From positions 24,043 through 88,042 of the forward strand of contig JAGWLG010000002.1 of the NCBI GenBank assembly GCA_028864975.1: a stretch of 64,000 nt of DNA. Direction: 5' to 3'. Positions 28,660-63,598 of the stretch are shown in pieces. Positions within the stretch are counted from its first letter, which is position 1; each line of letters begins with the position of its first letter. The position numbers and the translations under genes were made by a program. Source of the DNA: Thermoplasmata archaeon. GTDB lineage: Archaea > Thermoplasmatota > Thermoplasmata > Lutacidiplasmatales > UBA184. The notes under the pieces were generated by a model, which had not been told where the DNA came from, did not search any database, and saw nothing but the letters and a program-made list of their open reading frames with translations.

Positions 28660-31011
28660 ATGGAGAGGACCCGCGCTCCTCCGTTCGTGAACGAGGATGC
28701 ACCGCCAGGCTCGGGGGGGCCCCCTCATGCCGTCGCCTTCCCGTCGGAGCTCCTCGAGGAGCTTGACCGGGGCAGGGGCTCCCTCCTGCTCCTCCACGGG
28801 GGCACGGAGGTCTCTCGTGGTCGTGAGCTCGATGACCTCGCCAACGCCGCACGGAGGCGCGGCCTGGAGGCGGAGATCCTCGTGGCCGACCCGTTCGAGC
28901 AGGAAGTGCCCTTCGGTGCGCTCCTCCCTTGGCTCTCGCGGCTGCTTCCATCCCACCACCACGTGAGCGGCCGGGACGCCCCGGCGGAGGCCTGGCTTCC
29001 GCTTGTCGCGCTCTCCGGCCTTCTGGCCACCGAGGGGGCACGCCAGGCAACGCTGGACCTTTCCCCCGCCGCTTCCGCCGTCCCAGAGCCTTCCCACGAG
29101 GGGGCCGAGAACGGTCCCACCGGGGCGCGGGGCTCGGAGAGGCCGGGTCCTCCCCCCGACCTCGAAGCTGAATGGCAGTTCGTGCCACCGGAGGACCTAC
29201 GCGCGGTCCTTCTGGAGCTGGTCGAGGGCCGGGCGCGCAAGGGCCCGACGGTGGTCTGCGTTCGCCACGCCGAGCACTTGGACTTGGCGGGTCGGGAGTG
29301 GTTCCAGCAGCTCGCCCGCGGGCTGGAGCGGCTCCCCCTCCTTGTCTCCCTCTCCTTCGATACGGAGGGGCCCGAGCTCGCCGGGTGGCGTGGCGTGGGA
29401 CCCTCCGCCGGCCCGTGCGAGCAGACCCTCCCGCCTGACCCGGGTCGTTCCCCATCCTCCTCCCCGGGACCCCACCCTACGCCGCCGCGGGCCCTCTCGG
29501 CCGAGGACGGAAGACTGCTCGGGGCGGTCGCGCTGGCAGGTCCGGACGCCCATCCCGTCGCGCTCTCCCAAGCGCTGGGCACGCCTCCCGATTGGACGGA
29601 GGCGGGACTCTCCCATCTTGCCGCCCAAGGCTGGATCGAGAGGGAAGGGGGCGTCTGGCGTCTTTCCTCCCCCGACCGACGTGCGGAGGTGCTCAAAGAG
29701 CTAGGCCCCGCCACGGTCGCCCAGCTGCACCGTGGGCTAGCGGCCATGCTGGAGAAGCTCCATCCGGTCCCCCGAGGGAAGGTCCTCTTTCGCCTGGGGG
29801 ACCACTGGGCGGAGGCGGGGGGGGTCGAGTCGGGGTTCCCCCGGCTCCTGGCGTCGGCCGTGGAGTGTGAGCGCTGGGGCGCCCCAGTCATGGCGGAGAC
29901 ACGCCTGAGGCGAGCTCTTCTTCTGGCCCAAGGGGAGGCGGGAGCCCGGGGTCGTGAGCTCGAGGAGATCGCCTACTCGCGGATCTCTGCGGTCCGCTAC
30001 CGTTCCTCCGATCCGTCGGGTGCCCTCGAGGCGGTCCGCCGCGCCCTGGCGCTCGCCCGGGGGCGGGGGACGAGCGTCCATCAATGGGCCTTGTACGTCG
30101 CTCGTGCTGGGATGGCCCAGGTGGACCTGGGAGAGGACCCCGAGGCCGAGCTCACCGCGACGCTCGAGAAGGTGCGGGGTCAGTTCCCCGAGGTGGAGGC
30201 CGAGCTGCTGAGGGTCCGAGCGGTCAATCGATTCTCCCACGGCCGCTCGGGGGAGGCGATCGATGATGCGGAGCGGGCGTGCGCGCTGCTGGAGGGTTCC
30301 CCGAACGCTGCGGCGCGCGTGCGCGTCCAGATCGCGGCGGCGGGGACCTGCCTCTTCAGCGGTGGAGACCCGGAGAAGGCCCGGGAACACCTCTTGCAGG
30401 CCCTCGACCTCCGCGGGGGCGTGGAAGGTGGGCCCGACCAGGGGCTCATCGTCGCGGTGCTGGACCAGCTCTCCCAGGTGGAGTTCAACCTAGGACGGTA
30501 CGCCCCGGCCCTCGCGCGAGGGGAGGAGGCCATCCGGGAGGCGCGACGGCTGGGGACGCGACAGGGCCTGGCCGACGCCCTCGGGAACACCGCGGAGGCG
30601 GCCTGCGCGGCGGGGGACCCCGCCCGCGCGGCGGCCCTGGCCGAGGAGCTCCGTGGGCTCTGCTCTCGGTACCGCATCCCCGAGCCGGACGCGAGCCACC
30701 TCCAGCTCCTCCTCGTCGAGGGGCTGGTCGCCGAGGCGGGGGGGGACCCGAAGGAGGCCCTCGTGAGGTTCGAGCGCCTGGTCGCGGTGGCAGAGAAGGC
30801 GGGGAAGTTGAACTACCTCGGCCAGGCCCTGATCCAGAAGGCCCTCCTCCTGGAGCGGACCGGGGACCGGAACGGGGCGCGGGCCCTGATCGGCCGTCTC
30901 CACCGGGGCGGGTTGGTGAGGAACCTCCCCGCGGACAACCGGAAGAAGCTCGCCGGTCTCGAGGCGAGGTTAGCCCCCGCGGCATCCGAAGGATCGACCC
31001 GACAGCGATAG
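28660..31011 (+). CDS. AAA_16/STAND-like protein with degenerate P-loop and C-terminal TPR-like array (pseudo-ATPase paralogue of the 39663 gene)
   Basis: Aligns with the N-terminus of the 39663 ORF (ELLEELDRGRGSLLLLHGGTEVSRGRE vs EAERSRLQEGVDRARGGQGNSWVISGPAGVGKTR; PFEQEVPFGALLPWL vs PFFPFEQILHRL; TVVCVRHAEHLD vs LLLLLDDFQWAD) but Walker A Lys and Walker B Asp-Asp are replaced; C-terminal approx. 400 aa Ala/Leu/Arg-rich helical repeats. Confidence 0.6.
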   Translation: MERTRAPPFVNEDAPPGSGGPPHAVAFPSELLEELDRGRGSLLLLHGGTEVSRGRELDDLANAARRRGLEAEILVADPFEQEVPFGALLPWLSRLLPSHHHVSGRDAPAEAWLPLVALSGLLATEGARQATLDLSPAASAVPEPSHEGAENGPTGARGSERPGPPPDLEAEWQFVPPEDLRAVLLELVEGRARKGPTVVCVRHAEHLDLAGREWFQQLARGLERLPLLVSLSFDTEGPELAGWRGVGPSAGPCEQTLPPDPGRSPSSSPGPHPTPPRALSAEDGRLLGAVALAGPDAHPVALSQALGTPPDWTEAGLSHLAAQGWIEREGGVWRLSSPDRRAEVLKELGPATVAQLHRGLAAMLEKLHPVPRGKVLFRLGDHWAEAGGVESGFPRLLASAVECERWGAPVMAETRLRRALLLAQGEAGARGRELEEIAYSRISAVRYRSSDPSGALEAVRRALALARGRGTSVHQWALYVARAGMAQVDLGEDPEAELTATLEKVRGQFPEVEAELLRVRAVNRFSHGRSGEAIDDAERACALLEGSPNAAARVRVQIAAAGTCLFSGGDPEKAREHLLQALDLRGGVEGGPDQGLIVAVLDQLSQVEFNLGRYAPALARGEEAIREARRLGTRQGLADALGNTAEAACAAGDPARAAALAEELRGLCSRYRIPEPDASHLQLLLVEGLVAEAGGDPKEALVRFERLVAVAEKAGKLNYLGQALIQKALLLERTGDRNGARALIGRLHRGGLVRNLPADNRKKLAGLEARLAPAASEGSTRQR

Positions 31012-38966: not shown

Positions 38967-39482
38967 ATGGCGACCAGCGTCAGAACCCTGCCCCCGACGG
39001 TCGCCCGCCGCCTCCCGCCGGAGGAGGTCGCGCTCTGGGGGTCGCTGGTCTCGGTGACGCGGAGCCTCTTCCGCCACCTTCAGCACGACCTTCGGCGTGT
39101 CGGGGTGAGCGTCCAGCAGTACTGGGTGCTGCAGTGCCTGGATGTCCATGGGCCGCTCACCGCGGGGAAGCTCTCCCAGTGGCTCGAGGTGACCCTGCCC
39201 ACGGTGACGGGCATCGCCGACCACTTGGAGTCGATCGGCTACGTCCATCGCTCTCCCGCGCCGGAGGACCGGCGGCGCGTGCTCGTCCGGCTCACCCCGA
39301 AGGGGATGCGGATGCTCCGCTTGCTCCACCAGCACCACGCGGACATCGGACGGGACCTCGCCCAGCTCGTGCCGGACGAGGAGCGCGCCGAGCTCACGCG
39401 GGCCCTGGTCCGCATCGCTGCGCGCCTGACCCCGGACCACGGCCCCTGTCCGGGCTGCCACGGGGAGACCGACCTCACCTGA
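38967..39482 (+). CDS. MarR-family transcriptional regulator with C-terminal CxxC-H tail
   Basis: 'VSVQQYWVLQCLDVHGPLTAGKLSQWLEVTLPTVTGIADHLESIGYVHRSPAPEDRRRVLVRLTPKG' is canonical MarR wHTH; 'CPGCHGE' at C-terminus; AT-rich TATA-like 'GGTTTTAAGG' about 45 nt upstream. Confidence 0.75.
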   Translation: MATSVRTLPPTVARRLPPEEVALWGSLVSVTRSLFRHLQHDLRRVGVSVQQYWVLQCLDVHGPLTAGKLSQWLEVTLPTVTGIADHLESIGYVHRSPAPEDRRRVLVRLTPKGMRMLRLLHQHHADIGRDLAQLVPDEERAELTRALVRIAARLTPDHGPCPGCHGETDLT

Positions 39483-39662: not shown

Positions 39663-42600
39663 GTGGAAGAGGGCCTGCCTCTCGAGGATATGTCGCCCAC
39701 GCCGTCGGGGCCCGCCGCGGCCCCCGTCTTCGTCGGCCGTGAGGCGGAGCGGAGCCGGCTCCAGGAAGGGGTCGATCGTGCCCGCGGAGGGCAGGGGAAC
39801 TCTTGGGTGATCTCGGGCCCCGCGGGAGTCGGGAAGACGCGATTGATGCAGTGGCTGGAGGGGGAGGCCCAGACCCAGGGGTTCCGGGTCCTCTGGGGGT
39901 ACTGCCTGAAGGAGGACGTCTCCCCGTTCTTTCCCTTCGAGCAGATCCTCCATCGGCTGGGCCCTCGGGGTGGGTCCCGCGGTGGGGCCGGCGCGGCCGA
40001 GGCGGGGGTGGGGGACGTCCCGTTCCAGGTCGACGAGGCGGCCGCCGTGGTCATCTTCGAAGAGGAGAAGCCGAAGCGCATCTTCGACCACGCGTCGGCG
40101 CTCTCGAAGGCGCATCCCTGCCTCGTGCTGGGCCGGGACCGTCCTCAGTCGGTGCGGCAGAGGTTCCCCGAGCTCGCTCCCTCCTCGCGAGTCCTTTGGC
40201 TGTCGAGGACCGAGGGGGAGGAGGTGATCCCTCCGAGCCAGCTGGACGCGTTGGGCGAGCTCGCGGAGAAGCACCTCCGCCAGCACGAGGGAGGCGTCGT
40301 CGCGCTCGCGGGCATCGAGTACCTGGTGAGCCAGAATACGTTCCTCCCGGTGCTGCGGCTCTTGCAGTTCCTGAGAGACGTCGCTGAGGGGACAGGGGGG
40401 AAGCTGCTCCTCTCGGTCCACCCCGCGGCCTTCGATGCCCGGGAGTTCTCGCTGCTCGAGGCCGAGGGGGAGGTGGTGAAAGCCCCGTCGGCGGCGTCGC
40501 CCACCGGAGGGAGCGCCGAGGAGCGGCCGTCGGGCCGGGGGACGAGCGAGCCCTCCTCCGCCACGCTCCTCCGATACGTCCAGACGTTCGAGGCGGAGTC
40601 CCGCAACCGACCGCTCCTGCTCCTGCTGGACGACTTCCAGTGGGCGGACGAAGGCTCGGCGCTGGCCTTCCAGTTCCTCTCTCGGAACCTTCGGCGGGCC
40701 CCCGTCATCCTCGTGGCGGGCGTCCGCGACGCCGAGACGCGGACCACGGTCGCGGCGGGAGGCGGGAGCCCCCAGGAGGGGGTCGTCGTCGATGTCATGG
40801 ACAACCTGGACCGCGAAGGGATCCTGCGGAGGCTGCCGCTGCGGGGGCTCGACCCGGGGGAGGCGCGCGACCTCCTCGAAGGCTACCTGGGGGCACCGCT
40901 CGCGCCGGGGGACGTCGAGGGGGCGGCGCAGACCCTGGTCGAGCTCACCGGAGGGAACCCGTACCACCTCCTGCAGGTCGTGAGCCAGCTCAAGGAGGAG
41001 GGGCTCGCCCGGGTCGAGGGGGGCCGGGGGCTCATCTCGCTCCCTGCTCCGACGGAGGTTGGGTCGTCGTTCGCGGGCTCTCGGGGGCGCACCTCGCTCC
41101 CGACGATCCGGCGCCTGGTCTCTCGGCAGCTCGAAGGCCTGCCGAAGGAGGACCGCGCCCTTCTCGAGACCGCGTCCCTCGTCGGGCGGGAGTTCGACCT
41201 CCCTCCCCTGGCGGACGTTCTAGGTCGCTCCCGGGAGGACCTGAAGGCCCGTGCCGAGAAGCTCACCACGCGGCCCCCGCTCCTCACGGCACGGGAGGAC
41301 GGGAAGCGCTACGCCTTCCAGAACCCGATCGTCTGGGAGGTGGCGAGGGAGGAGCTCTCGGCCGAGGACCGACGCCGGTGCTCCCGGACCCTCGCGGACT
41401 GGTTCACCTCGCGTCGTCCAGAGGAGACCGAGACCATCGCGCGCCTCTACTACGAGGCCCGGGACCGGACGAAGGGGCTTCCGTGGATCCGCAAGGCGGC
41501 CGACAAGGCGCTCCGGACGCAGGCGAGCGATGCGGTCGAGCGTTACGTTCGGTGGGCGGAGGACCTGCTGCGCGGGAGCGGGGAGGACTGGGAGGGACGC
41601 GTGATGGAGGGGGTACGGCTCGCGGAGGGGATCCGCGAACAGGGGGCTATCCGCGACGCCCGACGGCTCCTGCAAGGGTTGCTGGAAGCGGGGCCCCCCG
41701 ACAAGCTCCGTTGGCGGGTCCAGAGGGCGCTGGTCATGGCCCAGGCGGACATCGATGCGCGCGAAGCCCGCACGCGGCTCGAGGAGCTCGAACGCAGCCT
41801 CCAGGCAATGCCCGAGGCGAAGATGCCGGAGTGCCGCTCGCTCCTCGCGGTGACGCGGGCCCACGTGCTGACCCTCGCGGGCTCGTGGGAGGAAGGGCTC
41901 GCCGCGGCGCGCGAGGCCCTCCAGCTGCTCTCGGAGGTAGGAGGGGGAGACCCGGCCGAACGTGCGCAAGCCCTCTACGCGGCGGGGTGGTGCCTGAAAC
42001 AGCTGGGACGGCTCGAGGAGGCGCGCGAGCAATTCGCCCAAGGTCGCGCCGCGGCGGCGGTCGCCGAGCGACCGGGGCTGCTCGCCTCCCACATGAACGG
42101 CGAGGGGGCGGTCGCCCTCCTTCGAGGGGACCTCCCGGCCGCGCGCCGGGCCTTCGAGGACGCGGTCGAACAGTGCCGCAAGACGGGGAACGTCGCGAGG
42201 GTCGCCTCGATCCTGCTCAACATGGCCGAGGTCGCGTTGAACCTGGGGGACCTGGAGGCCGCCCGGAAGGCGGCCGAAGAGGCGCAGGCGCTGGGGGAGC
42301 GCTTCGACGTCCCTCGGGTCGCCGCCAACGCGACCTTCCGCATGGGCGTGATCCACCAGAAGGAGAAGCGATGGGAGGAGGCTCGCACGGCGTTCCAGGC
42401 CGCGCTCGAGCGCTACGACCGCTTGGGCCTGGCCGACCTCGCCTACTCCGCCCGGATCAACCTCGCGCTCCTGCGCGGGATCATGGGCGACCCTCAGTCC
42501 GCCCTCGTCGAGCTCGAGGAGATGGTCCGCAAGAGCGTGGGCGTCGACCTCAGGAACCTACCGCTCTATCACCAGGCCCGGGCGGAGCTCAAGGGGTTCA

Positions 42601-42815
42601 CCGGCGACTCCGACGGAGCGAAGCGCGAGCTCGAGCGGGGGCTCGAGGCCGCGCGTTCGACGCAGAACCTCCTCTCGCAGGCTTCCCTGCACGAAGCCCT
42701 GGGGGCGTGGGAGGATGCGCACGGGGACCCCGCGCGGGCCCGGGTCCAGCGCGAGCAGGCCGAGGCGCTCTTCCGTCAATGCGGACTACCGAAAGGGAGC
42801 ACCTCGCGCGGCTGA
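39663..42815 (+). CDS. STAND-type AAA_16 ATPase with DUF835-like domain inserted between Walker A and Walker B, and C-terminal TPR array
   Basis: 'PVFVGREAERSRL...WVISGPAGVGKTRLMQWL' (AAA_16 start plus Walker A), 'PFFPFEQILHRL'; residues approx. 150-270 'RVLWLSRTEGEEVIPPSQLDALGELAEKHLRQHEGGVVALAGIEYLVSQNTFLPVLRLLQFLRDVAEGTGGKLLLSVHPAAFDAREFSLLEAE' match the DUF835 pattern; then 'LLLLLDDFQWADEGSALAFQFLSR' (AAA_16 Walker B/hhhhDDxhWaD); about 550 aa of TPR-like helical repeats follow. Confidence 0.8.
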   Translation: MEEGLPLEDMSPTPSGPAAAPVFVGREAERSRLQEGVDRARGGQGNSWVISGPAGVGKTRLMQWLEGEAQTQGFRVLWGYCLKEDVSPFFPFEQILHRLGPRGGSRGGAGAAEAGVGDVPFQVDEAAAVVIFEEEKPKRIFDHASALSKAHPCLVLGRDRPQSVRQRFPELAPSSRVLWLSRTEGEEVIPPSQLDALGELAEKHLRQHEGGVVALAGIEYLVSQNTFLPVLRLLQFLRDVAEGTGGKLLLSVHPAAFDAREFSLLEAEGEVVKAPSAASPTGGSAEERPSGRGTSEPSSATLLRYVQTFEAESRNRPLLLLLDDFQWADEGSALAFQFLSRNLRRAPVILVAGVRDAETRTTVAAGGGSPQEGVVVDVMDNLDREGILRRLPLRGLDPGEARDLLEGYLGAPLAPGDVEGAAQTLVELTGGNPYHLLQVVSQLKEEGLARVEGGRGLISLPAPTEVGSSFAGSRGRTSLPTIRRLVSRQLEGLPKEDRALLETASLVGREFDLPPLADVLGRSREDLKARAEKLTTRPPLLTAREDGKRYAFQNPIVWEVAREELSAEDRRRCSRTLADWFTSRRPEETETIARLYYEARDRTKGLPWIRKAADKALRTQASDAVERYVRWAEDLLRGSGEDWEGRVMEGVRLAEGIREQGAIRDARRLLQGLLEAGPPDKLRWRVQRALVMAQADIDAREARTRLEELERSLQAMPEAKMPECRSLLAVTRAHVLTLAGSWEEGLAAAREALQLLSEVGGGDPAERAQALYAAGWCLKQLGRLEEAREQFAQGRAAAAVAERPGLLASHMNGEGAVALLRGDLPAARRAFEDAVEQCRKTGNVARVASILLNMAEVALNLGDLEAARKAAEEAQALGERFDVPRVAANATFRMGVIHQKEKRWEEARTAFQAALERYDRLGLADLAYSARINLALLRGIMGDPQSALVELEEMVRKSVGVDLRNLPLYHQARAELKGFTGDSDGAKRELERGLEAARSTQNLLSQASLHEALGAWEDAHGDPARARVQREQAEALFRQCGLPKGSTSRG

Positions 42816-43029: not shown

Positions 43030-43812
43030 ATGTCCGGCGCTCTGGCCTCCGCGCTCCGGTGTCCCAAGTGCGGGACAGGAACGCTCGCCAAGCTCGCCAC
43101 CGGATGGACCTGCGAGCAGTGCGGGTTCGCTCCCTTTGCAGGGAGGGAGAAGGAGAAGGTGCCGCCACCGTCGCCGATCAATCCCCGCACGGTCGACCCC
43201 GCAGGCCGCCCCTTCTCCGCGTCCGACCTGGCGGCGGACGCCCCGCCGAAGGTACGGTTCAACTCCCTCGAGAAGCGCCCGGAGGCCCTTCGGGTGCAGT
43301 GGATGCCGGCGGGCGCGGGCCTCCGCTACGCTTCCCGCGTTTCCCTCCAGACCGTCCCCCCGGGGGAGAACGTGCCCCTCGAGCTCCTCGCCCACAATCA
43401 AGGGCCCCATCCCCTCTCGCTCGAGTACTACGTCCAGCTCACCGGGAGAAGCGGGGTGGTCGCGGTCTCGCGCGTCTACTCGGGCGACCTTCCTCCCGAG
43501 GGCGTCCTGGACGCGACGGTCCTACTGCCCCCTCCCGACGACCCGGAGGGCTGCCGGGTCTCCACCTATTGCCGGGCGCTACCGGCCACCGGACGCCTGC
43601 AACCCGAGCTCCAGCCGCCCGGTGTGGCCCCGGTCCAGGGGAGCGTGAGCCTACCGGTCCAGCCGACCGACCCGGACGTCAAGTTCCTCACGTCGGTCCG
43701 CTGCCCTCGCTGCGAGAACAGGATGGCGTGGGTGCCCGGAGGGCCCCGCAGGGCCCGGGCGTGGGTGTGCGACGCCTGCCAGCATCGGGTCGAGACGGGT
43801 CTGCTGGGTTGA
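43030..43812 (+). CDS. double zinc-ribbon protein (N- and C-terminal CxxC-x(n)-CxxC), hypothetical
   Basis: 'CPKCGTGTLAKLATGWTCEQCG' at N-terminus and 'CPRCENRMAWVPGGPRRARAWVCDACQ' at C-terminus flank a approx. 200-aa Pro-rich middle. Confidence 0.55.
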   Translation: MSGALASALRCPKCGTGTLAKLATGWTCEQCGFAPFAGREKEKVPPPSPINPRTVDPAGRPFSASDLAADAPPKVRFNSLEKRPEALRVQWMPAGAGLRYASRVSLQTVPPGENVPLELLAHNQGPHPLSLEYYVQLTGRSGVVAVSRVYSGDLPPEGVLDATVLLPPPDDPEGCRVSTYCRALPATGRLQPELQPPGVAPVQGSVSLPVQPTDPDVKFLTSVRCPRCENRMAWVPGGPRRARAWVCDACQHRVETGLLG

Positions 43813-44259: not shown

Positions 44260-44772
44260 ATGAACGCTGTCGCCGACCCCCGGGCGTCGCGCGCCACGCC
44301 GGAGGAGAAGCTCTCCCGGGCCCTTGGAGAGCTCACGCGCTGGCGATTGAGGCTCGGAAGGGAACTGGGCCGCGCCCGGGGGATGACGCTCCCTCAGGTC
44401 TTCCTTCTCGCGGGCCTTGTCGAGAACGCCCGGATCCCGGTCACGCGATGGGCGGAGGTCACAGGGTCCTCCCCGTCGACGACGACGGCGCTCCTGGATG
44501 GTCTGGAGGACGCGGGGCTGGTCCGCCGGGAGCACGACGAGGAGGACCGCCGACAGGTCCTGGTCTCGCTCACTCCCAAGGGGCTCAGGATCGCCGAAGA
44601 GTTCCGGCGGGAGGGGCGCCGCCAATGGGAAGCGCTCTGTCGAGGCATCCCTGCCGCGGAGCTGGACCGGAGCTCCGCCACCCTCCGACGGATCCTTCTC
44701 AAGGTCGATCCGGAGCCTGCGGAGGACCCCCTTCGACCCCCCTTGAGGTCAGAACGCTGGAGGAACGCATGA
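44260..44772 (+). CDS. MarR-family transcriptional regulator
   Basis: 'MTLPQVFLLAGLVENARIPVTRWAEVTGSSPSTTTALLDGLEDAGLVRREHDEEDRRQVLVSLTPKG' MarR wHTH; 5-nt overlap with the downstream ABC ATPase; TATA-like 'CCTTTATAGAGAA' about 35 nt upstream. Confidence 0.75.
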   Translation: MNAVADPRASRATPEEKLSRALGELTRWRLRLGRELGRARGMTLPQVFLLAGLVENARIPVTRWAEVTGSSPSTTTALLDGLEDAGLVRREHDEEDRRQVLVSLTPKGLRIAEEFRREGRRQWEALCRGIPAAELDRSSATLRRILLKVDPEPAEDPLRPPLRSERWRNA

Positions 44773-60762: not shown

Positions 60763-61424
60763 TGAGGAAGGGACTGGTGATCGTGGGGGTCGTCCTGCTG
60801 GCCTTGGGAGCGGTGCTGATGTTCGTCCCGCTGATCCCTTCGACGATAAGTTCGACGGCGAGCAACCCTTCGGCCAACGGCGGAATGATCGGCTACAACA
60901 TCTACCAGTCCAGCTTCTCCCTGACCGGGGGAACCACCGGCAAGTTCTCCTTCTCCTCTTCCTCCCCGGTGGACATCGCGGTCATCACCTGCTCCCGCGC
61001 GGTCACCACCTCGCAGCTTCAGCAGGCCACCACCAGCGCCCAGTTCAATGCGGCCTGCGGGACCAACACCACATACGGGACGACGCAGGTCGGAGGCTTC
61101 TCGTTCTCGAACGGCACGAGCGGTCCCTTCTCCGTGACCATCCCCTCCGGAGGGACCCTCATCTGGTTCGCGCTCTCGGGACAGAACTCCCCTCCGACCG
61201 TGACCGTGACGACGACGTACACCTCCCCGCTGCTCGGGCTGGTGCTCTTGGTCATCGGCGTGCTCCTCCTGCTCTTGGGGGTGGCCCTCAAGTCGAAGAA
61301 GCAGAAGCAGGCCGCGACCTCTCTGCCTCCGCCCCAGCCGTGGGGCCCTCCTTCCGGCCAAGGTGTGGCGTCGCCAGGAGCTCCCCCACCGGCCTGGCAA
61401 CAGCCTCCTCCACCCTCGCGATAG
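60763..61424 (+). CDS. bitopic membrane protein, small Cys-pair ectodomain, Pro-rich cytoplasmic tail (paralogue family member B)
   Basis: TM 'LVIVGVVLLALGAVLMFVPLI', ectodomain with 'ITCSRAV...NAACGTN', TM 'LLGLVLLVIGVLLLLLGVAL', tail 'PPPQPWGPPSGQGVASPGAPPPAWQQPPPP'. Confidence 0.5.
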
Positions 61425-61618
61425 TCGAGGCGAGGGGCCGCTTTCGCGTCGCAGCGCAAGCGCAGCGGCGGCGCCCCGTGAAGGGCTCAGGCCCCTGGCC
61501 GCCCCGTATGGGGCGATCCTCCCATCCCGTCCTGTCCATCGGTCCGCTCCAAGCCCCGATGGGGGGAGCGCGGCAGAGGGACCGGAGCGTCGTGGCGCGG
61601 AGGTGCACCTTCCCCCGG

Positions 61619-61636
61619 GGCCTTTTATAGAGAGCA
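61619..61636 (+). promoter_or_regulatory. putative BRE/TATA promoter element (GGCCTTTTATAGAGAGCA)
   Basis: Shares core CCTTT(T)ATAGAGA with 44221-44233; only about 12 nt before ATG 61642, so the real start may be slightly downstream or the transcript leaderless. Confidence 0.3.
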
Positions 61637-61641
61637 GAGCC

Positions 61642-62322
61642 ATGGCTCGCCCTGGGGAGCCCTCAGTGCGACCCGTCTTCGCCCTTGTCGGTTCGGCTAT
61701 CCTGGTCCTTCTCGCGCTCCTCTCTTACTTCGTTGCGGCGGGGTTCCAGCAGCAGAACAGCCTCTACCTCTCCTCTGGGCCCCTCTACACGGGAGGGGCG
61801 GGGTCGGCGGTGGTCGATCCCACCTCGTCGGAGGACACTTTCCTTCCGAACATCCCGGTGAACGTCACCGTGACCGACCTCCCGGCTGGGGCGACGGTCT
61901 ACGCCTTCCCGTGTCCCACGGGGGTGACGAACTCGACCCAGTGTGCCAAGAGCGCCCCCTCGTTCATCGATTCCTGGACCGGCAACGGGGACGGGCACCC
62001 GGTCTTCCTCCACTTCAACGTCAACGTCGGGCACGCTTTCGTGCTCACGACCAATGCCGGCCGGGGTGCCCAGGTCGCCTACACGGCGAAGGTCCCGCTG
62101 TGGGCCCTCCAGACGTGGGTGGTCGTGATCGTCATGATCGTGGGGATCGTTCTGGTCGGGGTGGGCCTCTCCCGGGGGCACTCCTCGGGGTCGGCGGCCT
62201 CCTATGGCGAACCGGCCGGATACTCCTCACCCCCCCTTCGGCGGTTCTGCGAGACCTGCGGGAGCCGCTTCCCCGACGACATGACAATGTACTGCCCCTC
62301 CTGCGGCGCGCCCCGGATGTGA
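61642..62322 (+). CDS. bitopic membrane protein, Cys-pair ectodomain, C-terminal cytoplasmic zinc ribbon (family member C)
   Basis: TM 'VFALVGSAILVLLALLSYFVAAG', 'FPCPTGVTNSTQCAKS', TM 'WVVVIVMIVGIVLVGVGL', 'CETCGSRFPDDMTMYCPSCG'; TATA-like 'CCTTTTATAGAGAG' just upstream. Confidence 0.5.
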   Translation: MARPGEPSVRPVFALVGSAILVLLALLSYFVAAGFQQQNSLYLSSGPLYTGGAGSAVVDPTSSEDTFLPNIPVNVTVTDLPAGATVYAFPCPTGVTNSTQCAKSAPSFIDSWTGNGDGHPVFLHFNVNVGHAFVLTTNAGRGAQVAYTAKVPLWALQTWVVVIVMIVGIVLVGVGLSRGHSSGSAASYGEPAGYSSPPLRRFCETCGSRFPDDMTMYCPSCGAPRM

Positions 62323-62323
62323 G

Positions 62324-63598
62324 GTGGGAACGGTGAGAGAAGGTCTACTGTTCCCCGGTGTGGTCCTCACGGTCCTGATGATCCTGTTCGCCTTCGCTCC
62401 TCTCCCGAACGCTCCGTCCGGGCAGGTGAGCTCGGCCCGGGCGCTCACGGTGAAGCCCCCCGCCTTCCCCTACTCGGAGGAGACGCCGATCAGCGTCAGC
62501 TGGAACGGGGGGAACGCTAGCACCTTCCTCGAGATCATCCCGTGCCTGGACTCGAACTGCTCTGCCGGGCCGAAGGCCCCCGTCACCGCGCCGCTCACGG
62601 TCAACGGAGGGGCCGTTGTGGCCAACGGGAGCTCGGGCGGCTTCACGGTCTGGGTCTCCACGACGCTGAGCCTGCTCATCGTGACGAACTCTCTCGCGCC
62701 GCTCAGCGTCACCGTGACGTGGAACGAGATGCCGGAGTTCGGGTTGCTCTGGGAGATCCTGACGGTCGTGGGCATCCTCCTCACGATCGGCGGGATGGTG
62801 CTCCCCGAGCACGGGGCCCCCCGCGGGCACCACCGGCGGCTTTCCTACGCCCACTGGAGGCACCACGCCTTCGCGCTCCCCCCTCACCTTCCCTCGACGG
62901 GGCTGACCTGCTCCGCCTGCGGGCTCTCGGACATCCCGCACGAGGACGACTTCTGCCCGCGTTGCCAAGCCCCCTTGCCGCGGGCCTCGACGGTCGTCCC
63001 CGGTCCTCCGTCGACCGCGGCGGCCGCCCCGGCCTCCCCCGCACGCCCCCGTGGCGCGGAGATGGCGGCGGGGACCGCCGCGGCGGCGTCGGCGGCCGGC
63101 ACGGTGGCCGCCGTGCCCCCCAAGAAGCGCGTCGCGGTGAACAAGTCGAAGGTCGCGGGGCAGTCGCTCTCCGTCGCCGACCCCGACCCGCTACGACCCT
63201 GGCGCGTGATGAAGGGCCTCGGGTTCGCTCCCGAAGAGGCCGTCGTCTTCACCCGCGAGGACCCGGTGGTCCTGGAGGAGAAGTACCACCTGACCGCTCA
63301 GCAGGTCCACATCATCAGCCGCACCGAAGGGGAGGGGACGATCTCCCCCTCGGAGTGCGACAAGATCGCGGACCTCGCCGACCAGCATCTTCGCAGCCAC
63401 GCGGGGGGCGTCGTGGTCCTGACCGACCCGAACTACTTCGTGACCCACGGTGGGTTCGACGTGCTTCGTAGGTTGGTGCTCGCGATCCAGGACCACGCCC
63501 GCGAGCAACGCGGGACCTTCATCCTCGCCTTCAACCCGTCGGTCTTCACGCCCGACCAGCGAGCGCAGCTCGAGGAGCGGATGCGCAAGGTCGTGTGA
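62324..63598 (+). CDS. bitopic membrane protein with Cys-pair ectodomain, cytoplasmic zinc ribbon, Ala/Pro-rich linker and C-terminal DUF835-like domain (family member D)
   Basis: TM 'LLFPGVVLTVLMILFAFAPL', 'IPCLDSNCSAGPK', TM 'LLWEILTVVGILLTIGGMVL', 'CSACGL...CPRCQAP'; C-terminus 'VVFTREDPVVLEEKYHLTAQQVHIISRTEGEGTISPSECDKIADLADQHLRSHAGGVVVLTDPNYFVTHGGFDVLRRLVLAIQDHAREQRGTFILAFNPSVFTPDQRAQLEE' aligns with the DUF835-like segment of the 39663 ORF. Confidence 0.6.
   Translation: MGTVREGLLFPGVVLTVLMILFAFAPLPNAPSGQVSSARALTVKPPAFPYSEETPISVSWNGGNASTFLEIIPCLDSNCSAGPKAPVTAPLTVNGGAVVANGSSGGFTVWVSTTLSLLIVTNSLAPLSVTVTWNEMPEFGLLWEILTVVGILLTIGGMVLPEHGAPRGHHRRLSYAHWRHHAFALPPHLPSTGLTCSACGLSDIPHEDDFCPRCQAPLPRASTVVPGPPSTAAAAPASPARPRGAEMAAGTAAAASAAGTVAAVPPKKRVAVNKSKVAGQSLSVADPDPLRPWRVMKGLGFAPEEAVVFTREDPVVLEEKYHLTAQQVHIISRTEGEGTISPSECDKIADLADQHLRSHAGGVVVLTDPNYFVTHGGFDVLRRLVLAIQDHAREQRGTFILAFNPSVFTPDQRAQLEERMRKVV

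Follow-up and report, generated by a model that had tools for sequence, protein, structure and literature searches.

STAND proteins, including MalT, Apaf-1, NLRs, and Avs, are described as effector-NOD-sensor chains in which the effector is terminal. Among the known systems closest to the protein described here are MalT and PH0952 from Pyrococcus horikoshii (PDB 6MFV). The tip of the NTPase core (NBD) of PH0952, consisting of ISM, ISMb, and H2, is covered by its TPR sensor, and STAND effectors are usually located at a protein end (PMC6468293). DUF835, the second component of the protein, is an inactivated KaiC/RecA-like domain, named 'iKaiC' by Galperin et al. 2018 (PMC5847659). It also follows REC domains in archaeal response regulators (PMC5847659), and its role as an 'output domain' is a published inference.

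The window analyzed is a stretch of 64,000 nucleotides from a Thermoplasmata archaeon, and a gene at positions 39663..42815 of the forward (+) strand encodes a protein combining the two: 1050 aa in the ORF list when counted from GTG 39663, as in the residue numbers below. GC3 was 0.90 and uniform along the intact frame. Since the corresponding NCBI protein (P0001; 100% identical to the ORF product) starts at Met10 (ATG 39690), and since the equivalent Met is also the start of the homologues in the family alignment, the true start is probably ATG 39690, giving 1041 aa. Nothing was annotated N-terminal to residue 23 or C-terminal to the TPR region by Pfam profiles or in the AlphaFold model.

The NBD of this protein is split into two parts, whose topology was assigned by comparison with PH0952 (PMC6468293). 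The N-terminal part (residues 23-100; 39729..39962, +) contained S1, Walker A (GPAGVGKT, residues 52-59; 39816-39839 by motif search), H1, and, from the AlphaFold secondary structure, S2 (residues 75-80) and the ISM helix (residues 90-99, PFFPFEQILHRL). The C-terminal part (residues 297-395; 40551..40847, +) contained H2 (residues 298-315), S3 with Walker B (LLLLDD, residues 319-324; 40617-40634), S4, which terminates at the invariant R355 of the alignment, and S5; the distance from Walker A to Walker B was therefore 267 residues (52 to 319). A helical domain (HD; residues 396-460, with the GxP motif as invariant GNP at 431-433) and a winged-helix domain (WHD; residues ~480-553) followed at 40848..41321 (+), completing the NOD together with the NBD. 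The remaining C-terminal region (41325..42782, +) consisted of a helical arm (residues ~555-720) and the TPR sensor (residues ~721-1040), in which TPR_12 (82 bits) and TPR_MalT (54.5 bits at 729-1003) were found by Pfam. The folds nearest to that of the TPR domain were MalT domain III and the Rap/NprR/AimR receptors, which bind peptides.

In the native protein, AAA_16 (PF13191) was matched with 70.1 bits in two stretches (cutoff of 32.6). When residues 106-294 were excised, a single match of 78.7 bits was obtained, which covered positions 2-167 of the 167 in the profile; searched separately, the N-terminal piece matched positions 2-75, and the C-terminal piece 124-167. Therefore, this is one interrupted NTPase domain, rather than two remnants. 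The NTPase looks catalytically competent because the Walker A glycines and lysine (G52, G55, G57, and K58), the aspartates of Walker B (D323 and D324), R355, and GNP 431-433 were invariant in the alignment of 18 sequences, together with W327 and D329. The features of STAND proteins were present as a P-loop NBD with both Walker motifs, an NBD-HD-WHD arrangement (NOD) with GxP and an ISM helix after S2, and, C-terminal to the NOD, an arm and then a sensor of the repeat type. Only an effector at either protein end was lacking; the sole domain not belonging to this chassis was nested in the NBD. These results suggested a STAND signalling NTPase of the MalT/PH0952 type, with the order NBD-HD-WHD-arm-TPR sensor, for which switching between ADP and ATP and multimerisation triggered by an inducer are predicted.

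The nested domain (residues 122-274; 40026..40484, +) was matched by DUF835 (PF05763) at residues 134-268: profile positions 5-135 of 136, 78.9 bits, and an E value of 4e-22 (cutoff of 33.1). The segment searched alone gave 84.1 bits, and the motif G[IL]EYLVSQNxFLPVLRLLQFLRD was kept. The initial annotation had read from the letters of this ORF an AAA_16 opening with Walker A, a Walker B some 260 residues later, a DUF835-like segment between them, and a C-terminal TPR array, and each of these elements was recovered, Pfam profiles giving the order AAA_16, DUF835, AAA_16, and TPR. It had also named two outcomes that would speak against it, namely two separate NTPase remnants and a middle segment without a DUF835 match; the excision and the Pfam search yielded neither.

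The insert folds autonomously: an AlphaFold model of it in isolation had a pLDDT of 96.1 and a pTM of 0.90. It is flanked by two disordered segments: linker 1 (residues 101-121; 39963..40025, +), which is rich in Gly/Ala/Ser (pLDDT <50 at residues 101-120), and linker 2 (residues 275-296; 40485..40550, +), which is rich in Ser/Pro/Gly/Glu (pLDDT <50 at residues 275-294). Across the family, their lengths ranged from 13 to 27 aa and from 9 to 27 aa, with pairwise identities of 0.17 and 0.20, respectively. By these linkers of roughly 10-25 residues, the insert is tethered between the ISM helix and H2, namely, at the place of ISMb in PH0952. Flexible linkers are equally compatible with a tethered regulatory domain, and the autoinhibitory-tip site also suits cis-regulation.

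In a PDB sequence search, the whole protein gave matches at the level of TPR only, and the insert gave a single non-significant match (FlaH); the insert was thus placed by fold comparison. It has a KaiC/RecA-like alpha/beta core, with 146 of 155 residues aligning to FlaH. The place of Walker A, the loop after the first strand, is occupied by EEEKPKR, with no GxxxxGK[ST] anywhere in the insert, and the Walker B Asp of FlaH aligns with Ala216, a position at which Ala, Ser, or Thr is found. Because the Walker A loop and the Walker B Asp are both replaced, the insert is most unlikely to bind or hydrolyze ATP: it is a structural relative of the KaiC/RecA ATPases, not an active member. That DUF835 might combine with the preceding Walker A segment into one complete RecA-like ATPase was considered and rejected: the insert alone spans the RecA core, and the flanking pieces alone rebuild a complete AAA_16.

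The layout was not confined to the window. The homologues formed 20 clusters at 90% identity, and a scan of GTDB genomes using a 7-sequence insert alignment as the query found it at 13 loci in about 9 Thermoplasmata genomes. When clustered at 50% identity, the STAND-iKaiC-TPR family (Thermoplasmata) fell into no fewer than 46 clusters, with 2-3 paralogues per genome, and HMMER, run exhaustively with a profile of the insert, yielded 3033 DUF835 relatives. Pairwise identity was 0.50 in the insert and 0.45-0.52 in the NBD, but only 0.27 in the TPR region; the insert is conserved on par with the NTPase core, whereas the TPR sensor is far more divergent. The distance between Walker A and Walker B was 248-279 aa in insert-bearing proteins and 88-132 aa in the insert-less sister family described below. 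We know of no STAND/AAA_16 protein with a domain inserted between Walker A and Walker B. No account of DUF835 nested in an AAA_16/STAND NBD was found in the literature searched, in agreement with the initial annotation, which knew of no such architecture.

The nearest relatives of the chassis belong to an archaeal family consisting of AAA_16, TPR_MalT, and a C-terminal wHTH (P0021 and P0261-P0275), without DUF835: about 30% identity over NOD and TPR, with E values of about 1e-80. The next-best matches were bacterial kinase/cyclase/SARP AAA_16 proteins (about 1e-30). In P0021, exactly the insert segment is absent and the AAA_16 match is contiguous, and its tail, a winged helix of ~90 aa, matched MarR_2, HTH_Crp_2, and PadR. 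The wHTH tail was found in 0 of 64 insert-bearing proteins and in 12 of 12 insert-less relatives, and insert and tail occurred together in none, these being counts of related proteins and not of independent events. When a tree was built by neighbour joining from the NOD with the insert excised, only 1 of 100 bootstraps recovered the nested group as monophyletic, and the insert-less P0274 fell within this group; the tree did not distinguish a single gain of the insert from its loss in the wHTH lineages. Since the insert and the wHTH tail are mutually exclusive among the closest relatives, and since the insert is conserved while the sensor diverges, we infer that the nested insert is probably the output (effector) of the protein, replacing the usual terminal effector. 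In other proteins, DUF835 occupies a C-terminal output place behind 7TM receptors, propeller/PEGA ectodomains, and TPRs. It had initially been suggested that DUF835 may be a common interaction or sensor module; in view of this C-terminal placement and the exclusivity with wHTH, an output/effector role of the insert is favoured over that of a sensor.

The genes around the locus were as first annotated, with a MarR gene upstream (38967-39482) and a double zinc-ribbon gene downstream (43030-43812), but they did not form a conserved neighbourhood: L008 was the sole close relative in which MarR recurred, the zinc-ribbon gene was absent from all of those examined, and a conserved operon of the two was rejected. 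Other family members adjoin unrelated housekeeping genes. Since the neighbourhoods are not conserved, they give no hint at a partner. A second, ordinary DUF835 protein is encoded at 62324..63598 (+), as had also been noticed. It contains membrane segments and a C4 zinc ribbon, and its DUF835, which is C-terminal (residues 305-418; nt 63236-63577), scored 53.9 bits and was 30% identical to the nested insert. This protein resembles the STAND-iKaiC-TPR protein in domain type alone, and a functional link between them is putative.

The best explanation as a whole, to which we give about an even chance, is a MalT/PH0952-type STAND protein with a nested iKaiC effector gated by the sensor. [quoted passage not shown] Binding of an inducer, probably a peptide or protein, at the TPR sensor would free the clamp, and opening of the NOD would then allow ADP to be swapped for ATP and the protein to multimerise head-to-tail. 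The multimer may expose and cluster the iKaiC domains for docking with a downstream partner; the likeliest putative candidates belong to the KaiC-centred signalling network of archaea, being either KaiC-like ATPases or further DUF835 proteins. Paralogues with distinct TPR sensors would thereby route distinct inputs to one conserved output. A stronger form of this scheme is conceivable but rather unlikely: at the hub of the inducer-driven oligomer, the nested pseudo-KaiC domains would come together as a ring or platform resembling that of KaiC, which would recruit or regulate genuine KaiC-like ATPases or other DUF835 receptors.

The nested iKaiC may also be a cis-acting regulatory or input module, with the oligomerised NOD-TPR scaffold itself as the output; we regard this as a serious minority possibility. 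As such, it could cover the oligomerisation surface as an additional autoinhibitory lid, or inhibitor or activator proteins could dock on it. MalK and MalY, which act on MalT, provide a model for such docking of regulators. The insertion lies at the ISMb place, which is the autoinhibitory contact between the NBD and sensor in PH0952 and MalT, two flexible linkers speak against rigid mechanical coupling, no other effector is recognizable in the protein, and STAND proteins that act as scaffolds without an effector are conceivable. However, the insert-less nearest relatives all carry a wHTH effector and the insert-bearing proteins never do, which fits a swap of the output and not an added regulator, and DUF835 elsewhere occupies the transmitter or output place behind receptors and REC domains.

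It appears improbable that the insert is mainly an oligomerisation scaffold, the self-assembly of which into a ring sets or stabilizes the stoichiometry of the STAND protein with no separate partner. The closest structures, FlaH, KaiC, RecA/RadA, and DnaB-type helicases, act as rings or filaments, and the 2-4 tandem copies of DUF835 in many other proteins suggest packing between DUF835 domains. On the other hand, the NODs of STAND proteins oligomerise unaided, the nucleotide sits at the subunit interfaces of KaiC/RecA whereas the insert is without both Walker motifs, and the protein would be left without any output.

Some defence proteins are STAND NTPases that have a TPR sensor, and the initial annotation had drawn a parallel with Avs/NLR-like immune or signalling switches. 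In a defence role, the TPR would recognize a viral protein, and growth arrest or cell death would be set off by the nested domain. The several divergent paralogues per genome are reminiscent of immune receptor families, but the best PADLOC match was BrxD at 18.2 bits, limited to the P-loop and not significant, and no nuclease, protease, TIR, SIR2, or pore-forming effector was found by Pfam. Furthermore, the family members lie next to housekeeping genes and not in defence islands, and the proteins of the sister clade, with their wHTH, resemble transcription factors. With no signal in PADLOC profiles, effector domains, or neighbours, this parallel was not upheld, and we consider a defence role very improbable. 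Although the source is a metagenome-assembled genome, an artefact (mis-assembly, fusion error, or two degenerate NTPase remnants around an unrelated domain) has a negligible probability, given that dozens of assemblies, made independently in separate studies, show the same architecture and junctions (33-100% identity), that the frame is intact with uniform GC3, and that excision restores a single full-length AAA_16.

Several modules nested between Walker A and Walker B are known in other NTPases: the coiled coil of Rad50/SMC, the insertion domains of UvrA, and the helical domain of G-alpha. These share with STAND-iKaiC the principle of a module placed in a surface connection of the NTPase core and coupled to the nucleotide state, but differ in the class of NTPase and in the inserted module. 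FlaH/ArlH, PH0284, KaiC, and RecA/RadA have the same superfamily fold as the insert, at identities of only 6-14%, and the insert differs from them in the loss of both Walker motifs. Ordinary DUF835 proteins (REC-DUF835 and 7TM-, propeller-, and TPR-DUF835), in which DUF835 also appears to be a signalling module, are 29-40% identical to the insert and share the EYL...F...LR.L motif; however, in these proteins the domain lies at the C terminus behind a receptor or receiver, often repeated in tandem (2-4 copies), whereas the nested family has one copy inside a P-loop domain. A widespread archaeal signalling domain is found here on a well-understood switch, and MalT-style assays could reveal its binding partner. 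Sister proteins alternate cleanly between the nested iKaiC and a wHTH at the C terminus, which would be a rare swap of output, open to dating and dissection.

PH0952 and MalT are, like the nested family, STAND NTPases with a TPR sensor, but each has a terminal DNA-binding effector (N-terminal and ArsR-like in PH0952, and C-terminal and LuxR-type in MalT), of which the nested family has none. Between ISM and H2, they have a helix or loop (ISMb), in contrast to the iKaiC of ~150 residues on two linkers. [quoted passage not shown] If the ring or platform proposed above were formed and acted on such partners, this would be the first STAND protein with an effector built into the NBD, at the sensor-capped ISM tip, and the family would physically join two signalling systems that have hitherto been treated separately, the STAND switch and the KaiC-centred network of archaea.

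The gene at 39663..42815 (+ strand) was recovered by ORF search exactly where the initial annotation had placed it, and comprised 1050 codons from GTG with a strongly coding codon-position GC pattern (GC3 of 0.90). Since the NCBI protein of the same MAG (100% identical to the ORF product) begins at Met10 (ATG 39690), and the equivalent Met is the start in all homologues, ATG 39690 is a likelier start than GTG 39663, from which residues are numbered here. Pfam reproduced the proposed AAA_16-DUF835-TPR order: AAA_16 in two stretches (70.1 bits), DUF835 at residues 134-268 (profile positions 5-135 of 136; 78.9 bits, E 4e-22), TPR_12 (82 bits), and TPR_MalT at residues 729-1003 (54.5 bits). Walker A (GPAGVGKT) was located at residue 52, and the sole Walker B-like block (LLLLDD) at residue 319, 267 residues later. 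When the N piece, the C piece, the excised segment, and the protein minus residues 106-294 were each scanned with Pfam, the N and C pieces matched AAA_16 profile positions 2-75 and 124-167, respectively, and the spliced construct gave one uninterrupted match over positions 2-167 of 167 (78.7 bits vs 70.1 bits for the native protein); the excised segment by itself scored 84.1 bits for DUF835. Therefore, the protein contains one AAA_16 domain interrupted in its variable middle region. The spliced match ruled out an assignment of Walker A and Walker B to two separate domains, and the score of the excised segment showed that the middle does match DUF835.

A full-length AlphaFold2 model, using an 18-sequence family alignment as input, was confident (mean pLDDT 84.2, pTM 0.70). 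Strand S1 (residues 46-52), helix H1 (58-71), and strand S2 (75-80) were followed by a helix (90-99; PFFPFEQILHRL), a disordered stretch (linker 1, 101-120), an alpha/beta domain (the insert, 129-272), a second disordered stretch (linker 2, 275-294), a further helix (298-315), S3 with Walker B (318-323), S4 (348-355), and S5 (388-392); then came a three-helix domain with the GNP motif, a winged-helix domain (WHD), and a helical arm with approximately sixteen TPR-like helices. DUF835 was predicted to fold independently between the P-loop and Walker B strands. In the STAND protein PH0952, S2 leads to the ISM helix, next to another, variable helix (ISMb), and then to H2 and the Walker B strand, and a loop takes the place of ISMb in Apaf-1 and NLRC4 (Lisa et al. 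2019, PMC6468293). By the order of elements, the helices at 90-99 and 298-315 were assigned as the ISM helix and H2, so that DUF835 and its two linkers would fill the ISMb position. [quoted passage not shown] By this parallel, the insertion site would be both a surface-exposed, evolutionarily variable element and a sensor-NBD autoinhibitory contact. GxxxxGK[ST] was absent from the insert, in which the loop after the first strand was EEEKPKR, and the Walker B Asp of FlaH aligned with Ala216 (best sequence alignment, non-significant). The insert is therefore a domain of RecA fold in which neither nucleotide motif is retained, and it is presumably catalytically dead (an inactivated KaiC-like, or iKaiC, domain).

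The nested layout defines a family. A word-indexed search gave 20 clusters (at 90% identity) with 34-100% identity to the main protein, all of ~950-1075 aa, each with PF13191, PF05763, and TPR, and all from Thermoplasmata or 'Euryarchaeota' MAGs; the 157-aa insert as a query gave no match and missed even its parent protein, so that negatives from short queries are unreliable in this search. In GTDB species representatives, the insert profile detected 13 nested-type loci in approximately nine Thermoplasmata MAGs, each with Walker A 60-70 residues ahead of the DUF835 match and DDxxW 40-50 residues past it, together with 19 loci for ordinary 220-460-aa proteins with C-terminal DUF835. An exhaustive HMMER search with the same profile (1.84 billion 50%-identity representatives) yielded 3033 DUF835 relatives, 66 of which were at E<=1e-30, and most full-length proteins among these top matches were of the nested type; a strict nested-motif test was passed by 46 representatives, and ~57 fitted by length and position. 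A protein with 40% identity (P0007) is encoded on another contig of the source MAG, and two nested-type copies 3.5 kb apart were found at locus L004 and three copies in DBS1-1.bin134. At L004 (1-2500; ENA k141_1512644), a 1510-aa member with the order AAA_16-DUF835-AAA_16-TPR and ~500 extra residues is a tandem paralogue 3.5 kb upstream of the 1026-aa P0014. Mean pairwise identities across 17 members were 0.52 (N-terminal NBD part), 0.50 (insert), 0.45 (C-terminal NBD part), 0.43 (WHD), 0.36 (helical domain), 0.31 (arm), 0.27 (TPR sensor), and 0.17-0.20 (linkers, of 9 to 27 residues across the family); Walker A, Walker B, R355, and GNP were invariant in the family alignment. By this measure, the insert is as strongly conserved as the ATPase core, with fast-evolving linkers and a divergent sensor, a pattern expected if paralogues have different inputs and one common output.

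P0021, the sole close relative without the insert that the first search returned, lacked exactly the segment from the ISM helix to H2, gave a contiguous AAA_16 match (84 bits), and ended in a tail of ~90 residues matching the MarR_2, HTH_Crp_2, PadR, and TrmB winged-helix (wHTH) models. A search with P0021 revealed a sister family (P0261-P0273) and the more distant P0274 and P0275, all with AAA_16 and TPR_MalT and most with the winged-helix tail; the nested family was next-best (E ~1e-80), and bacterial AAA_16 proteins whose effectors are of the kinase, cyclase, SARP, or LuxR type followed at 1e-30 or worse. The distance from Walker A to Walker B was 88-132 residues in sister proteins vs 248-279 in nested ones. 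When all retrieved proteins of this chassis (NBD-HD-WHD-arm-TPR) with at least 850 aa were scored by HMMs of the insert and of the tail, 64 had only the insert, 12 only the wHTH tail, and none both, these counts not representing independent events; among the ten with neither, two were probably C-terminally shorter or truncated sister members, and eight were bacterial, with other effector types or none detected. The simplest reading of this strict alternation is a single chassis with either of two outputs. In a neighbour-joining tree of the insert-excised NOD-WHD (100 bootstraps), the archaeal proteins formed one clade and the main wHTH group was monophyletic (100/100); the nested group was monophyletic in 1/100 only, with the insert-bearing P0169 basal and the insert-less P0274, which has a wHTH tail and the RPEEVE.[IV]A.LY motif of the nested family, inside it. 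These placements in a non-robust tree hint that the iKaiC/wHTH swap may have occurred more than once.

In all of the nearest non-nested relatives of the insert, DUF835 was the cytoplasmic module at the C terminus, frequently as 2-4 tandem copies, behind a HisKA_7TM-type seven-helix receptor, PQQ or NHL propellers with PEGA, a TPR array, or a HerA-like ATPase. Archaeal response regulators include REC-DUF835 and REC-PAS-PAS-DUF835, with DUF835 as the output, and, according to a proposal cited in the same article, inactivated KaiC domains connect to a signalling network centred on KaiC (Galperin et al., PMC5847659). The second DUF835 domain noted in the window was present in an ordinary protein (62324-63598, + strand; 30% identical to the insert) with membrane segments and a C4 zinc ribbon. 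Its gene nearly abuts another membrane-protein gene (61363-62322, + strand); both products carry a DZR-like C4 zinc-ribbon motif, a C-terminal DUF835 is present in the 62324-63598 product alone, and they may form a receptor pair. Separately, genes for ~310-aa C-terminal-DUF835 proteins (Thermoplasmata, Methanomassiliicoccales) consistently had a divergent ABC-type ATPase gene ~1.5-2.2 kb upstream on the opposite strand (L021, L023, L025, L026, L028, L029, L031, L033, and L034), whose product shares 30-35% identity with the ABC ATPase encoded in the window at ~44.8-45.7 kb; for that DUF835 subfamily, the neighbourhood seems to be conserved.

The main protein is a motif-intact MalT/PH0952-type STAND NTPase with a single autonomous iKaiC domain tethered at the ISMb tip. 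With as much doubt as conviction, we regard the insert as the effector of the nested family, acting via sensor release, NOD opening, multimerisation, and iKaiC-partner engagement. An inducer would bind the TPR sensor and thereby release the NBD tip from the clamp formed by arm and sensor; the NOD would open, swap ADP for ATP, and multimerise; and the iKaiC domains, exposed and clustered, would then interact with a downstream partner, for which KaiC-like ATPases or other DUF835 proteins are plausible candidates. A cis-regulatory or inhibitor-docking module would also fit the location at the NBD tip and the flexible linkers, but the effector swap speaks against it, and we consider it rather unlikely. 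That the insert is purely an oligomerisation scaffold seems improbable.

The MarR-family regulator (38967-39482, + strand) upstream and the double zinc-ribbon gene (43030-43812, + strand; 260 aa) downstream were both present, with gaps of ~200 bp to the main gene; they did not form a conserved neighbourhood. The MarR neighbour recurred only in a close relative (L008, 85% identical) and was absent at the two closest relatives (L006 and L007), and the zinc-ribbon gene was found at no relative's locus compared. Neighbours of other members were a macro-domain gene and an acyl-CoA dehydrogenase, acetyltransferases and PKD proteins, or an H+-pyrophosphatase. Operon membership was rejected because of the gaps and the neighbours not kept in relatives; the main gene behaves as a stand-alone signalling gene. 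PADLOC profiles gave no defence-family match for the main protein, and its surroundings in the window (ribosomal proteins, NDK, methionine synthase, and M1 peptidase) were housekeeping. A defence-island context was rejected on these grounds, which also speak against the Avs-like immunity parallel of the initial annotation and make such a defence role of the nested family very doubtful. An artefactual layout is practically negligible.

The 43030-43812 protein had two CxxC...CxxC zinc ribbons, one at either terminus (residues ~8-33 and ~223-252), with a faint Cas12f1-like TNB/IS1595 zinc-ribbon match and no recognisable middle domain. Along with the MarR gene at 38967-39482, a second MarR-family regulator gene (44260-44772, + strand) flanks the region; genes for an ABC ATPase and an ABC-2 permease come directly after it, and the three are likely an efflux operon under MarR control that has no relation to the STAND gene. 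A second STAND-like protein (28660-31011, + strand; 783 aa), 8.6 kb upstream of the main gene, had TPR_12, an AAA_16 match below the cutoff (24 bits), and a degenerate P-loop region, and resembled the main protein at the TPR level only (BLASTP E 4e-05). This protein probably represents a paralogue type that is inactive or highly divergent.

Both components, STAND-TPR proteins and DUF835/iKaiC, are already known, and family members are deposited under generic names ('tetratricopeptide repeat protein', 'DUF835 domain-containing protein', and 'AAA family ATPase'). Our literature search found no description of an effector-type domain nested within a STAND NBD, in line with the earlier claim of an undescribed split architecture, and no reported link between STAND switches and iKaiC modules. 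A nested iKaiC domain in a STAND would surprise STAND or archaeal-signalling specialists, and the family, with a putative function and uncultivated hosts, provides an experimental handle on DUF835. Other P-loop classes (Rad50/SMC, UvrA, and G-alpha) offer familiar examples of nested modules, and the principle is therefore not new; these share it with the main protein but are not STANDs, and the novelty is that a STAND has the nested module, placed at the ISM tip that the sensor would cap. STAND effector domains are located at either protein end (PMC6468293), as in PH0952/MalT-type STANDs, whereas the main protein carries its candidate effector nested in the NBD at the ISMb position.
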